The notes below the pieces were generated by a model. It was not told the origin of the DNA. It was given only the letters and a program-made list of their open reading frames with translations, and did no database searches. A DNA stretch of 64,000 nt from Puniceicoccaceae bacterium (GTDB taxonomy: Bacteria > Verrucomicrobiota > Verrucomicrobiia > Opitutales > Oceanipulchritudinaceae). This document shows positions 851-35,565 of the stretch, one piece after another. Both the position numbers and the translations under genes were made by a program. Numbering within the stretch: position 1 is the stretch's first letter; every line of letters begins with the position of its first letter. Location of the stretch: positions 55,465 through 119,464 of the forward strand of contig JBFOMH010000002.1 in assembly GCA_040830765.1 (NCBI GenBank). Reading direction: 5' to 3'.

Positions 851-941
851 TATCTTAATCTTAGCCTTAATCTTAATCTTAGCCTTAGCCTTAGCCTTTC
901 GCGACGAGATTAAGATTAAGATTAAGGCTAAGATTAAGATT
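851..941. repeat. Hexamer inverted-repeat element, copy 1 (empty)
   Basis: Left arm TATCTT AATCTT AGCCTT AATCTT AATCTT AGCCTT AGCCTT AGCCTT (851-898), spacer TCGCGAC, right arm GAGATT AAGATT AAGATT AAGGCT AAGATT AAGATT (906-941). 852-880 is the exact reverse complement of 912-940. Confidence 0.95.
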
Positions 942-943
942 AT

Positions 944-11582: not shown

Positions 11583-11698
11583 GATCTTAATCTTAGCCTT
11601 AGGCTTAATATTAATCCCAAAACCCAATCTTAGTCTTAGCCTTAATCTTAATCTTAATCTTCTGCGCCGGGATTAAGATTAAGGCTAAGATTGAGATT
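11583..11698. repeat. Hexamer inverted-repeat element, copy 2 (two left arms, one right arm)
   Basis: GATCTT AATCTT AGCCTT AGGCTT AATATT AATCCC / AATCTT AGTCTT AGCCTT AATCTT x3 / CTGCGCC / GGGATT AAGATT AAGGCT AAGATT GAGATT. Confidence 0.95.
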
Positions 11699-11699
11699 A

Positions 11700-16011: not shown

Positions 16012-16140
16012 GGTCTTAATCTTAGCCTTAATCTTAATCTTAATCTAAGACTTTTACGCAGGGATTAGGATCAAGATTAAGATTAAGGCTAAGATTAAGA
16101 TTGGGAGGGAAAGATTAAGGCTAAGATTGAGATTAAGATT
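16012..16140. repeat. Hexamer inverted-repeat element, copy 3 (one left arm, two right arms), inside the RND operon
   Basis: GGTCTT AATCTT AGCCTT AATCTT AATCTT AATCTA / 13-nt spacer / GGGATT AGGATC AAGATT AAGATT AAGGCT AAGATT AAGATT / GGGAGGGA / AAGATT AAGGCT AAGATT GAGATT AAGATT. Confidence 0.95.
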
Positions 16141-27416: not shown

Positions 27417-28445
27417 TCACTTCCCGGAACCGGCCCTTTTCGCATTCAAGCGACGTCGGATAACAAGAATGGTGCCTAGGACAGGAAGTGCCAGCAGCCC
27501 AACTGTTGCGGGCTCCGGGACAGGATTGAATAACAGGGTGTCCAGTTCGTAGATGTTCTCCAGGTAATTATCGGGATCATATGGAGAGCCTGCTTGAGCA
27601 AGACTATACTCACGGTTCCACCAGTAATTCCCCGGATCAGTTAAACCTTCAGTGGCTTCGAAAATGATGGGGGAGCTGGAGTTCCAGATCAATGAGTCTA
27701 TCGTTTCACCAAGAATCTGGTAAGCAAAAGCAAATTCCACTGTATTGGCGTTGTTAGGATCGACCCGGGACCAGAGAATGGGGTCATCAACTGAGCCTCC
27801 GGCATCAGAATTTTTCAAGGTTCCGTCGACTGCGATTTCATTGTCGTAGCCATTGCCGCTGGGTTCAGTAGGGCTGTCTTCGACCAATTCCGGCGATCCC
27901 AGCAAGCGATCGTCATTGGAATCATAAAACACCTTGTTAGTGCCGTCCTGACTTTTCAAATTCCAGTCGGTGTCCTTGGGATCCGTTGTCGTGTTCAGTT
28001 CGTCGACGCTGATGTCCTCCGCACTGAGTAAATATTGGCCAATCCGAATCCGGTATTGCTTATTCAGGCCTGTTTCGACGAGCTCTCCACCATCGTTTGG
28101 TTCTTCATATCGAGAGAACAGCTCAATCCGCCCGTAAATAAAGTTGTCATCATAGCCGAGCGAAGCTTCCACAATGTCCAGGCTTCCGAAATAATCCGAA
28201 CCTTGGGACCCGTTGTAGAATGTCGTTTGCAATGGACGCTCATAGAGCTCCATTTCATAGACATCGGCACCATCACCAACTTCCCAGCTCCGTTCGCCTG
28301 TCGTGGGATCCGTGGTTTTGGTCAAGCCTGTGACAAAGTCCTGTTGGGTTCCCAGATTATATATCGGGTTGGTGGGTGTATATTGACCCATCAGGCAGAC
28401 AGGAAGAAAACTGATGCAGAACCACAAAGAGAGAGTATTTTTCAT
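27417..28445 (-). CDS. PEP-CTERM sorting-domain protein
   Basis: Signal peptide; C-terminal VPEPATVGLLALPVLGTILVIRRR; acidic body; visibly AT-richer than its neighbours. Confidence 0.88.
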   Translation of the reverse strand: MKNTLSLWFCISFLPVCLMGQYTPTNPIYNLGTQQDFVTGLTKTTDPTTGERSWEVGDGADVYEMELYERPLQTTFYNGSQGSDYFGSLDIVEASLGYDDNFIYGRIELFSRYEEPNDGGELVETGLNKQYRIRIGQYLLSAEDISVDELNTTTDPKDTDWNLKSQDGTNKVFYDSNDDRLLGSPELVEDSPTEPSGNGYDNEIAVDGTLKNSDAGGSVDDPILWSRVDPNNANTVEFAFAYQILGETIDSLIWNSSSPIIFEATEGLTDPGNYWWNREYSLAQAGSPYDPDNYLENIYELDTLLFNPVPEPATVGLLALPVLGTILVIRRRLNAKRAGSGK

Positions 28446-28607
28446 TGGTAGGAAGAGAGAACCTTATAATGTAAGGAAAAATTCTTATTAAAGTAAATAA
28501 AAAATTTAAGAATAATGAGTATTTTACCTTAGACTATTGCAGGAGTAACCTAAATTGACTAAAGCAGCAGGTTGGCGGTAAACCCGAAGTCGAGCCATGC
28601 TGCCCCT

Positions 28608-30143
28608 ATGCTCTCCACCGTCCATTCCGGGGCCCTGATGGGGATTGAGGCCTGGCCGGTGACGGTGGAGGTCAATACCGGGGAATGTGGCGAGCCGAAT
28701 CCGGTCGTGGTGGGGATGGCCAGTACGGCGGTGAAGGAGAGCAAGGACCGGGTCTGGGCGGCGATTGCCAACAGCCGCTACACCCTGCCGCAGAAGCGGA
28801 CGGTAATCAACCTCGCCCCGGGGCATTTGCGGAAGGAAGGGGCGCTCTATGACCTGCCGATCGCTCTCGGGGTCTTGCAGGCAACGAGCCAGCTGAGCCC
28901 GCAGGGACTGGGAGATTACCTTGTCGCCGGTGAGCTAAGCTTGTCCGGGGAAGTCCGACCGGTCCGCGGTGGTCTTGCCCTGGCCGTCTGTGCCCACGCG
29001 GAAGGAAAGAAGGGATTACTCCTGCCCCCGAAGACAGCCGAGGAGGCAGCCCTGATGGGAGATGTGGATGTCTATGCCATTTCCTCGATGGATGCAGCCT
29101 GCGCCTTTCTCGAGGGACGCCATGTCCTCAAGCCGCTGAAGAAACGTTTCTCCACGGCTATCCCGTCGGCGGCTACTGACGGAACCGACTTCTCCGACGT
29201 GAAGGGTCAACAGGCCGTCCGGCGGGCGGTCGAGGTAGCAGCGGCGGGGGGGCATAATCTCTTGATGCTGGGTCCGCCAGGTTCTGGAAAGTCAATGATG
29301 GCCAAGCGGATTTCGACCATCCTGCCACCTTTGCGGGAAGCGGAATATCTGGACATCCTGCGCATTTACTCCGCCTCGGGCAAAACCCTGAACGGGGAGG
29401 CGGTGACGGCGCTGCGTCCCTTCCGCAGTCCCCACCACACGATCAGTGACGTCGGGCTGATTGGCGGGGGGACCATTCCCGGGCCGGGGGAAATCTCCCT
29501 TGCGCACCATGGGGTTCTCTTTCTTGACGAGTTGCCGGAGTTCAAGCGCGGTGCCCTGGAGGTGCTGCGCCAGCCGCTGGAGGATGGAGCGGTGACCATT
29601 TCCCGAAGCGCCGGCAAGGTGACGCTGCCCGCTTCCTTCATGCTGGTCAGCGCCATGAATCCCTGCCCCTGCGGCTACCTTGGCGATTCGCGGAACCGGT
29701 GCCAGTGCACGGCCCTGCAAATCCAGCGCTACCGTTCGCGGGTCAGCGGTCCCCTGCTCGACCGGATCGACATCCATGTCGAGGCACCGGCCCTCAGCAT
29801 CGAGGAGCTGCGGCAAAAGAATCCGGGCGAGTCCTCCCTGGCCATGCGTGAACGGGTCGCCGCCGCCATGGAGCGCCAGGCAAGCCGCTTCGCGGACAGC
29901 CCGCCGGGCATTCCCCGGGTCAACGCCCGGATGTCCCATGCCCGTATCCGGCAACATTGCCGGCTGGACGGAAACCTCGGCGACCTCCTGCAGCAGGCCA
30001 TGAAGCGCCTCCGCCTCAGCGCCCGGGCCTACGACCGCATCCTCAAGGTGTCCCGGACCATCGCCGATTTGGAAGGTAGCGATAAAATCGCGACATCCCA
30101 CCTGATGGAGGCCATCCACTACCGCAGCCTCGATCGGGAATAG
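28608..30143 (+). CDS. comM: YifB/ComM family Mg-chelatase-like AAA+ ATPase
   Basis: [19 protein letters not shown], Walker [46 protein letters not shown]. Confidence 0.92.
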
Positions 30144-30147
30144 TCAA

Positions 30148-30183
30148 AATCTTAATCTTAGCCTTAATCTTGATCTTAATCTC
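30148..30183. repeat. Hexamer inverted-repeat element, copy 4, left arm
   Basis: AATCTT AATCTT AGCCTT AATCTT GATCTT AATCTC; 4 nt after the comM stop and 9 nt before the four-helix-bundle ATG. Confidence 0.95.
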
Positions 30184-30192
30184 CCCTACCAC

Positions 30193-30561
30193 ATGAAGGT
30201 CGAATTCAACCACGAGAAACTCAAGGTTTACAGGGACTCAATCCTGTTTGTGAACAAGTTGAACCAGATCCTGGATTCGCAAAAATCCAGAACCCCAATC
30301 AGGGATCAGATAGAAAGAGCGTCCATCTCGATTCCTTTAAATATCGCTGAAGGAAACGGCAAGTTCACGCCTAGAGACAAGTGCAGATTTTTTGATATTG
30401 CCCGTGGCTCGGCAATGGAATGCGCCGCTTGTCTGGACATTCTTGTCGTTAAAGAAGAGATAGCCCCGCACATGGCTAAAATGTTGAAGGGTATCCTCCA
30501 CGAAATCGTATGCATGCTGGTCGGCTTAATCCAATCAACGGATAAAAGGAGGAACTACTAA
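30193..30561 (+). CDS. Four helix bundle protein (23S rRNA IVS-protein / Avd-like family)
   Basis: F.HEKL.VY, DQIERASISIPLNIAEGNG, RFFDIARGSAMECAACLD family signature; AT-richer codons than the flanking genes. Confidence 0.92.
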   Translation: MKVEFNHEKLKVYRDSILFVNKLNQILDSQKSRTPIRDQIERASISIPLNIAEGNGKFTPRDKCRFFDIARGSAMECAACLDILVVKEEIAPHMAKMLKGILHEIVCMLVGLIQSTDKRRNY

Positions 30562-30590
30562 GTGGAAACTTTTGGAGTTAACCAAAAATC

Positions 30591-30638
30591 ACGATTACGG
30601 CTTAGATTAAGATCAAGATTAAGGCTAAGATTAAGATC
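30591..30638. repeat. Hexamer inverted-repeat element, copy 4, right arm
   Basis: ACGATT ACGGCT TAGATT AAGATC AAGATT AAGGCT AAGATT AAGATC; 30604-30637 is the exact reverse complement of 30149-30182. Confidence 0.95.
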
Positions 30639-30642
30639 TAAT

Positions 30643-31671
30643 TTAATGAATCAGATCCCAGACGACGCGGCAGTCGTGTATCAGCTTTTTCAGGACATCG
30701 GGAGTGACGGCCTGCTTGGGATCGTCGCCGATGCCGGAGATGGGATTGACGTGGGCCTCGATGATAAGCCCGTCGGCCCCGTAGGCGATGGCGGCGAGGG
30801 AGCAGGCGGGGACAAACTTGGCCCGGCCGACGGCGTGGGAGGGATCAGCCACGACGGGTGCCCATGACTTGTCCTTGAGCAACGGGGTGATGCTCTCGTC
30901 CGGGTGATTGCGGAAACCGTCGAGAGCGGGCATGGTCCCGCGGGGACAGAAAATGACATTGGGATTGCCGTTGGCGGCAAGGTACTCGGCGGCGGAAATA
31001 TATTCGTCAACCGGTCCCATGTGGCGACTACGCTTGAGGAGGACCGGGATTCCGGCCTCCGCGGTGCGGCGGCCAATTTCCGCCAGAAGGGTGTAATTGA
31101 GGGCGTTGCGGGTCCCGATCTGGAGGACGTCGACTTCGGCATCCAAAGCAACCGTCAACTGGGCCTCGTCCATGACCTCGGCGACCACCGGCAGACCCGT
31201 GCGGGTACGTGCCTCGAGCAGTACCTCCATGGTCTTGGCGGTTCCCTGGTAGCTGTGGGGAGAGGTTCGCGGTTTCCAGACACCCCCGCGGATACCGTGG
31301 GCGCCCGCTTCCTGGACAGCGGCAGCGGTCTCCAGGAAGGCCTGAGGATTCTTCGGATCGATGGTGCAATGACCGGCAATGAAAAGGGGTTCCTTGCCCA
31401 GCTCCACGTTTCCAATGCGGATGGAGTGTTGGGCCAGGTCGGAGCGGGCATCCATCAGCTTGTAGACCGACTCCATGCGGTCGACCCGGTCGATGTACTC
31501 CAGTCCGACGAGGCGATTGACCATGGTTTCACTCCGCTCATCCCCGATGATGGCGTAGATATTGCGGTGTGCCCCGTAGATGACCTGAATCTTACAGCCG
31601 AATTCGCCGACGATGGCCTCGACTTCGGAGAGTTGAGGATCGGTCAGGGTAGGTGCCTTGGAAATAATCAT
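30643..31671 (-). CDS. 3-deoxy-7-phosphoheptulonate (DAHP) synthase, type I-beta with N-terminal regulatory domain
   Basis: RGGVWKPRTSPHSYQG, QIGTRNALN, PVLLKR, DPSHAVG and ADGLIIEAH motifs. Confidence 0.85.
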   Translation of the reverse strand: MIISKAPTLTDPQLSEVEAIVGEFGCKIQVIYGAHRNIYAIIGDERSETMVNRLVGLEYIDRVDRMESVYKLMDARSDLAQHSIRIGNVELGKEPLFIAGHCTIDPKNPQAFLETAAAVQEAGAHGIRGGVWKPRTSPHSYQGTAKTMEVLLEARTRTGLPVVAEVMDEAQLTVALDAEVDVLQIGTRNALNYTLLAEIGRRTAEAGIPVLLKRSRHMGPVDEYISAAEYLAANGNPNVIFCPRGTMPALDGFRNHPDESITPLLKDKSWAPVVADPSHAVGRAKFVPACSLAAIAYGADGLIIEAHVNPISGIGDDPKQAVTPDVLKKLIHDCRVVWDLIH

Positions 31672-35467: not shown

Positions 35468-35565
35468 AATCTTAATCTCAATCTTGCTCTTAATCTTAAT
35501 CTCCAGGCCGGCTGGGGGCTTGGGACGGGAAGATTAAGATTAAGATTAAGGCTAAGATTAAGATT
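35468..35565. repeat. Hexamer inverted-repeat element, copy 5 (overlaps the clpB stop)
   Basis: AATCTT AATCTC AATCTT GCTCTT AATCTT AATCTC / 26-nt G-rich spacer / AAGATT x3 AAGGCT AAGATT AAGATT. Confidence 0.93.

Follow-up and report, generated by a model that had tools for sequence, protein, structure and literature searches.

Why should a gene for a small four-helix-bundle protein stand alone between two arms of tandem hexamers, and what, if anything, ties the protein to the repeat? The question is raised by a 491-bp segment (positions 30148-30638) in a 64,000-nt stretch of DNA (the window; G000:C2:55465-119464) from a genome of the order Opitutales (G000, the source genome, 3.99 Mb and 96.9% complete), in which a gene of the protein family PF05635 lies between a comM gene and a gene for DAHP synthase. 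The segment represents a widespread type of 'gene-in-a-stem' cassette, here situated between ordinary genes, and we favor, at a probability of about one half, the reading that this cassette resembles the intervening sequences (IVS) of ribosomal RNA and that its protein, which is probably pentameric, would read the periodic word of which the arms are built.

Arms, words and protein clades

The segment itself is a real, non-random feature. Both arms consist of tandem hexamers (Tandem Repeats Finder, period 6) and contain a 34-nt inverted repeat (30149-30182 and 30604-30637, 421 nt apart) that is 100% complementary, with the left-arm unit GATCTT matched by the mirror unit AAGATC in the right arm. 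The left arm begins 4 nt past the comM stop codon and finishes 9 nt ahead of the cassette ATG, and the right arm, which includes additional imperfect units at 30585-30603, ends 4 nt from the stop codon of the DAHP synthase gene. In the predicted fold of the RNA from 30140 to 30650 (-160.5 kcal/mol), the 34-bp stem closes the minimum-free-energy structure as well as the centroid structure; the z score is -6.83 and none of 100 shuffled sequences folded equally well. The cassette gene is the sole plus-strand open reading frame (ORF) of at least 50 aa that fits between the arms, and the GC content is 0.426 in the cassette (0.453 in the ORF) against 0.644 and 0.612 in the flanking genes. An earlier description made from the letters alone (hereafter the sequence-only reading), of a 34-bp inverted repeat with mirrored units, a 122-aa gene as its only cargo, and an AT-richer cassette between convergent comM and DAHP synthase genes, is borne out in each of these points.

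The cassette protein matches PF05635 (E 1.8e-21, 76.8 bits, cut-off 33.8) and TIGR02436 (73 bits, cut-off 24), and in a genome-wide profile search its gene is the only PF05635 gene of G000. The family motif R-x3-S-x3-N-x2-E (PMC3936711) is present as R42-x3-S46-x3-N50-x2-E53, with all four residues invariant or nearly so across two alignments of relatives. An AlphaFold2 model (43-sequence alignment, pLDDT 92.9) consists of four helices and superposes on Xcc0516 (2GSC; template-modeling score, TM, 0.88-0.91, root-mean-square deviation 1.3-1.7), on BT_0352 (2RLD; TM 0.76-0.87) and, at about 11% identity, on Avd of the diversity-generating retroelements (DGRs), both alone and within the DGR ribonucleoprotein (4DWL, 8UB7; TM 0.75-0.78). 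The protein is basic (pI 9.16), as are most of its relatives (pI at least 8.5 in 21 of 27). The 2GSC structure has five chains; the Xanthomonas homologue is described as a homopentamer (PMC4990558) and Avd as a pentameric, positively charged barrel that works with reverse transcriptase and RNA (PMC6182149). By analogy with these structures, the cassette protein is probably pentameric as well. To our knowledge, the PF05635 family is large and widespread; two crystal structures have been solved, and no function is known except in DGRs.

The arms are not a peculiarity of this locus. We assembled 30 PF05635 loci, of which 29 could be scored, from G000 and other members of its order (41 genomes in all), and as controls we took windows displaced by 700-1000 nt within these loci. 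A flanking inverted-repeat score of at least 30 was reached at 24 of the 29 loci and in none of the 113 control windows, for which the top score was 27; among the five loci without arms, two (L026, L027) are sub-threshold matches to longer proteins and one (L003) is cut by a contig end. The expectation that genes of this family are flanked by tandem-repeat arms in relatives is thus supported. The arms of the Opitutales loci are always made of tandem short words, and the word varies by gene (GGCTGTR, GGTTGCT, AGAAGAC, AAGGGACA, GAATGAT and others).

This variation is not scattered over the protein phylogeny. When 27 proteins were placed in a tree, eight of them, including the cassette protein, fell into a clade supported at 100/99, and all seven of these that have arms show a period of 6, whereas the remaining 19 rows include 15 with arms, every one of them with a period of 7 or 8. 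The alignment of the eight-protein clade was then searched against species-representative genomes, a sample that covers the clade of the cassette protein only, and yielded 80 loci at 48-60% identity from Verrucomicrobiota, Planctomycetota, Kiritimatiellia, Lentisphaerae, Desulfobacterales and Ignavibacteria. Arms are present at 67 of the 77 loci with enough flanking sequence, all with period 6, and the commonest arm lengths are 6 units (left) and 7 units (right). The pyrimidine-rich strand carries the unit R-M-T-C-N-T, with T at position 3 in 0.93, C at position 4 in 0.92 and T at position 6 in 0.88 of cases and with positions 1, 2 and 5 varying; the register of the word was chosen to maximize TC, which inflates positions 3 and 4, to the detriment of our argument, but not position 6 or the period. 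Since the period and three positions are kept at about 50% protein identity, and other words occur in other clades, the protein itself may be what reads the word; indeed, the fixed period together with the three fixed positions is the strongest indirect sign in these sequences to suggest so.

Dialects and gene-less arrays

The word of the cassette recurs without the gene. With up to two mismatches allowed, an 18-mer of the hexamer family (AATCTTRRYCTTAATCTT) is matched 34 times in the window and not once in 100 shuffles, and the four gene-less copies that the sequence-only reading had placed nearby are all present. In G000 as a whole, a regular expression combined with inspection located 25 gene-less hexamer sites, namely 13 hairpins and 12 single arrays. 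At gathering thresholds, Rfam offers no family for the hexamer arrays, and in the window it identifies one tRNA and no rRNA.

Comparison with species of the same genus shows how old these sites are and how their words differ. In the sister species G010, whose comM and DAHP synthase genes are 89% identical to those of G000 at the DNA level, the 18-mer has 47 matches against 50 in G000; there are 3 in G008 and none in the other nine of ten congeners. We compared 24 G010 arrays with G000, of which 18 had both flanks mapped within 1.5 kb and six were unresolvable. An array is present in G000 at 17 of the 18 resolvable sites, and the remaining site is occupied by a different GC-rich repeat; at shared sites the arms are conserved and the loops are often unalignable. 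The earlier suggestion of a currently mobile element finds no support in this comparison.

Nor is there support for the proposal that the gene-less hairpins are 'empty' forms of a 'loaded' element. None of the 22 loops of at least 20 nt resembles the cassette interior more than shuffled sequences do, and an origin of the hairpins by deletion from the cassette was rejected on this ground. When the loops of 25 hairpins were compared with one another (22 loops of at least 10 nt), five pairs passed the score threshold, of which four are weak or orthologous, and the sole clear paralogous pair belongs to two neighboring hairpins 2 kb apart in inverted orientation. Spread of the hairpins as whole units was likewise rejected, because loops are mostly unrelated between sites.

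A GC-rich repeat with CGCGGGATAAACCCG was also noticed, which has 11 copies in G000. It occupies C19:80277-80405, where G010 has a hexamer array, and it is found within the loop of a G010 hexamer hairpin (L060, G010:C67); these positions suggest nesting or replacement between the two repeat families.

The congener G008 speaks a different dialect. Its orthologous cassette occupies the same comM-DAHP site in the same orientation, with arms of AATCTC, AATCCC and AATCAT and their complements. Matches for four AATCNN units number 128 in G008 versus 17 in G000. AATCAT and AATCAC together make up 28% of the units in sampled G008 arrays, and AATCAT alone makes up 29% of the G008 cassette arms, whereas AGCCTT accounts for 11-15% of the units in G000 and G010 arrays and for 15% in the G000 cassette arms. 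AGCCTT is outside the ten commonest words of G008, and AATCAY is outside the ten commonest words of G000 and G010. Both flanks could be mapped in G000 for 11 of the 20 G008 arrays examined. Two of these sites (G000 C2:90932, which is window position 35468, and G000 C23:15593) carry an array in both genomes, each in its own genome's words; the other nine are short array-less spacers in G000, so arrays have been gained or lost over the distance between these two species. Judged from these sequences, arrays that persist follow the dialect of their genome.

The cassette proteins of G000 and G008 (L014) are 59% identical, and the flanking genes are 70-76% identical at the DNA level; the low cassette identity reflects either evolution faster than that of the neighbors or a swap at the comM-DAHP site.

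Cassette and dispersed arrays share a word elsewhere in the order as well. GGTTGCT occurs in one of the 41 genomes (G007), at the cassette and at four other sites, and GGCTGTR is found in G019, again at the cassette and at four other sites. In G009, a second type of four-helix-bundle gene (L194, G009:C6:19000-20400) has a complete copy of a dispersed hairpin on each side, the two copies being in direct orientation and not a single inverted pair, and this hairpin combines AATCGA/AATCGC words with an inner stem of GGTCTCGG.

Weighing the readings

Several observations weigh against a protein that reads the word. The association between clade and word is in part co-inheritance, and arrays that copy or convert one another could come to share a dialect even if the protein plays no part. 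The pyrimidine-rich strand lies upstream of the gene in 52 of the 67 armed cross-phylum loci, but the arms have the opposite polarity in 15 of 67. In G015, GGCTGTR stands nowhere but at the cassette, with no dispersed copies, and G023 and G038 contain GGCTGTR arrays with no same-word cassette in their assemblies. The 20 proteins neighboring G000 arrays reveal no regulon theme, because they are products of unrelated housekeeping genes (MurB, DHFR, LepA, a KsgA-type protein, iPGM, 6PGD, parts of cytochrome oxidase, transporters), two of the 20 being without a Pfam match. In G010, the PF05635 profile gave nothing above its cut-off and the ORF had no match at the DNA level, and the hairpin stems of this species are as intact, at 28.9 bp at 93% versus 25.8 bp at 94% in G000.

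The comM-DAHP junction of G010 falls at two contig ends (L043, C67; L048, C16) that overlap via a GC-rich repeat of about 150-190 nt. This repeat abuts both stop codons, and neither hexamer arms nor the gene are there. The absence of the gene from G010 is probable rather than proven, because the assembly is 92% complete and in 150 contigs. Given that 17 of 18 resolvable sites are common to G000 and G010, the gene-less arrays are old, fixed intergenic elements, not copies on the move, that do not decay quickly without the gene, and if the protein is to maintain or spread the arrays, the model must allow for their long persistence after gene loss. On present data, the prediction that repeat abundance tracks gene presence does not hold, with as many arrays in G010, equally intact, and no detectable PF05635 gene; a repeat-rich genome without the gene was named by the sequence-only reading itself as grounds for refutation. 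Of the protein-plus-repeat system that had been proposed, what stands is that gene and arrays belong together, that the word is clade-specific and that the dialect is shared; what speaks against it is the survival of intact arrays in G010 without a detectable gene.

Some of these observations support a purely selfish IVS-like cassette, in which the arms would have no role beyond that of a stem, serving RNase III processing or insulating the cassette from the host transcript, the protein would not read the word, and the arrays would be slippage-prone repeats that share ancestry or exchange with the arms. Arrays kept intact in G010, the stability of sites between species and array neighbors without a functional theme all fit such a cassette, as does the conservation in place, with no known factor, of heptamer arrays in Xanthomonas (PMC4692102). 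However, complementarity suffices for a stem, yet the period and three of six positions are fixed in 67 loci of six phyla at about 50% protein identity; other clades, at times in the very same genomes, have words and periods of their own; and single arrays that have no partner are conserved too. We regard the purely selfish cassette as unlikely, though as a contender to be taken seriously. A different emphasis makes the arrays useful to the host, as intercistronic elements (a spacer or ribosome-binding region, or an mRNA-stabilizing or processing hairpin), with the gene a passenger that came to rest in one of them or entered it by recombination. The gene-less G000 sites fill gaps almost exactly, 12 of 25 having an ORF within 15 nt on each side and another 10 on a single side; the element at 16014-16140, for example, fills the gap between two minus-strand ORFs that are 6 nt and 1 nt away. 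Fifteen of the 25 lie between co-directional ORFs, and among the single arrays so placed, six of seven place the purine-rich AAGATT strand in the mRNA, immediately ahead of the following start. The polarity of gene-less hairpins is uniform, with the AATCTT-type arm first in 13 of 13 in G000 and 12 of 12 in G010. The ORF calls behind the positional counts are crude (longest ORF, at least 120 aa), the arrays are dispensable in that G000 is array-less at nine of the 11 resolvable G008 sites, and a host function accounts neither for the presence of own arms at nearly every PF05635 gene in many phyla nor for a word that follows the protein clade, all of which makes this explanation improbable.

Two further possibilities would supply the enzyme that the cassette lacks. 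In the repetitive extragenic palindrome (REP) and REPIN systems, the gene for a REP-associated tyrosine transposase (RAYT) is flanked by inverted copies of a dispersed, hairpin-forming, genome-specific repeat, and the cassette gene likewise sits between inverted copies of a genome-dispersed, genome-specific repeat. A REP/RAYT-like or MITE-like (miniature inverted-repeat transposable element) system, with hairpins mobilized in trans by an HUH tyrosine transposase and the four-helix-bundle gene as cargo, might also draw on the three RAYT-like genes that G000 encodes, one of which exceeds the NF047646 cut-off while two fall slightly below it. Each of these genes has its own GC-rich palindromes on both sides and no hexamer array within 1.5 kb; they are classical REP/RAYT units, and RAYT was rejected as the mobilizer of the hexamers because all three carry other repeats. 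The cassette protein is a four-helix bundle with no HUH/tyrosine transposase signature, its repeats are tandem words instead of single palindromes, the loops are not conserved between copies and the sites are stable relative to G010, so that we consider trans mobilization of this kind very doubtful. A RAYT-like ORF also occurs in the comM-DAHP spacer of G006 (L047:2556-3533), where a 1.3-kb insert with a 326-aa ORF is found and no four-helix-bundle cassette; the ORF has no Pfam match and a distant match to NF047646 (REP-associated tyrosine transposase; E 1.3e-10, 41 bits, cut-off 80), and the comM-DAHP gap seems to collect small selfish genes. The other possibility is that the protein, whose model has a fold similar to that of Avd, is an accessory of a retroelement and that a reverse transcriptase acting in trans copies the stem-loop RNA. 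The sequence-only reading had noted no reverse transcriptase in the window, and this extends to all of G000, with no PF00078 match in the 96.9%-complete genome and matches in control genomes; no template/variable repeat pair was seen either, and an Avd-like role is the least credible of the explanations considered here.

A cassette whose protein reads the periodic word is therefore the reading we retain. Extended to the family, PF05635 proteins would be ring-shaped, sequence-specific readers of 6-8-nt words, with word and period specific to the clade, and a cassette and the arrays of the same dialect would form one protein-repeat system, similar in layout to REP/RAYT but with no catalytic gene; this wider proposal we hold tentatively, at somewhat short of an even chance. 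In a scan for promoters, of sigma-70 type only, no promoter-like site was detected, and terminator-like sites were at chance level; from the lack of a promoter-like site we infer that the cassette would be transcribed by read-through from comM. In the RNA, the hexamer arrays of the two arms would pair into the predicted 34-bp stem, which RNase III might cut, by analogy with rRNA intervening sequences. The protein ring would bind the periodic word, with roughly one word per subunit, and could act on its own transcript, either by autoregulation or by controlling how the stem forms and is cut; the arrays located in the gaps between other genes would probably be targets as well. Cassettes or arrays might reach new sites by homologous exchange through the arms.

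Contigs assembled from public runs (Logan) cover the ORF region at 30199-30349 (X3), 30194-30601 (X4) and 30464-30623 (X2), from RNA libraries that may hold DNA, and the contigs show no ends. Two joints in Logan contigs of four public runs, from 30178 to 30603 and from 30181 to 30603, were considered as an excised or circular form and rejected; the 28 letters inserted in the second are identical to the loop of a paralogous hairpin (G000 C12:25498), so the joints represent other members of the family and not excision.

Known systems and the surrounding window

The closest known thing is the ORF-bearing IVS of 23S rRNA, and the segment is an IVS-like cassette outside rRNA. In Coxiella burnetii (helix 45) and Leptospira, as here, an S23p/PF05635 ORF is enclosed by terminal inverted repeats whose pairing gives a stem of about 28-34 bp. 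For the Coxiella IVS, PMC4990558 describes a terminal stem of 28 bp, cut by RNase III in mid-stem, and tandem GACAGAT heptamers before the S23p start, so that short tandem repeats beside the start codon are a further likeness. Unlike these sequences, the cassette stands between two protein-coding genes and not in rRNA, its arms are entirely tandem hexamers, and its word recurs at about 25 gene-less sites.

The dispersed arrays in turn agree, in all features tested but the period, with the over-represented heptamers that form arrays in Xanthomonas (GGGAATC) and Nostoc (Rehm et al. 2015, PMC4692102), which are intergenic tandem arrays of short words, single or in convergent stem-loop pairs, with most sites kept through changes in length (83% between Xcc and Xac, to be compared with 17 of 18 resolvable sites here) and with a function given as unknown. 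The arrays described here differ in having period 6, not 7, and in being tied to a PF05635 cassette of the same dialect; the terms 'intervening', '23S' and 'S23' do not occur in Rehm et al. 2015. A literature search, with subscription journals outside its coverage, returned no paper that ties PF05635 genes outside rRNA to tandem-word arms. The proposed reading of words also has a functional analogy in TRAP, a ring of identical subunits that reads a periodic short motif (spaced triplets) with variable spacer bases, although its fold is unrelated.

As far as we know, decades have passed without an explanation for either the ORF-bearing intervening sequences of rRNA or the short-word arrays between genes. 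If the wider proposal for the family is correct, the ORF-bearing 23S IVS, the excess of short tandem words between bacterial genes (Xanthomonas, cyanobacteria), and the function of the very large PF05635 family, including Avd of DGRs, would be explained together, and if binding holds true, 5' and 3' untranslated regions that bear arrays in many phyla would become candidates for a new form of post-transcriptional control. The locus offers a direct test case, with one protein, one 6-nt word with three fixed positions, and the dialect of a congener as a specificity control.

Table 1. Features of the cassette and its surroundings in the window, with the RAYT-like genes of the source genome
Feature	Position	Strand	Remarks
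ComM/YifB-type Mg-chelatase-like ATPase gene (Mg_chelatase/ChlI)	28572..30143	+	profile match
Left arm	30148..30183	.	six tandem hexamers AATCTT AATCTT AGCCTT AATCTT GATCTT AATCTC
PF05635 / TIGR02436 four-helix-bundle gene	30193..30561	+	122 aa
Right arm	30585..30638	.	AAGATT-type hexamers; 30604-30637 perfect complement of 30149-30182
DAHP synthase gene	30643..31671	-	convergent with comM
Gene-less hairpin, same hexamer family	852..942	.	7-nt loop; directly past a stop codon
Gene-less array and hairpin, same hexamer family	11584..11699	.	7-nt loop
Gene-less hairpin with extra AAGATT array	16014..16140	.	site common to G000 and G010
Gene-less hairpin	35468..35565	.	site common to G010 (same dialect) and G008 (G008 dialect)
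RAYT-like gene L173	G000 C40:7843-8208		
RAYT-like gene L174	G000 C17:323400-323804		
RAYT-like gene L175	G000 C13:85757-86146		

Two minor features lie on the other side of comM. The gap upstream of this gene contains an AT-rich tandem repeat at 28463-28503 (22-nt unit, 1.9 copies), and a minus-strand ORF of 342 aa at 27417-28445 has, by reading only, a PEP-CTERM-like tail with a VPEP motif, a hydrophobic stretch and basic residues.

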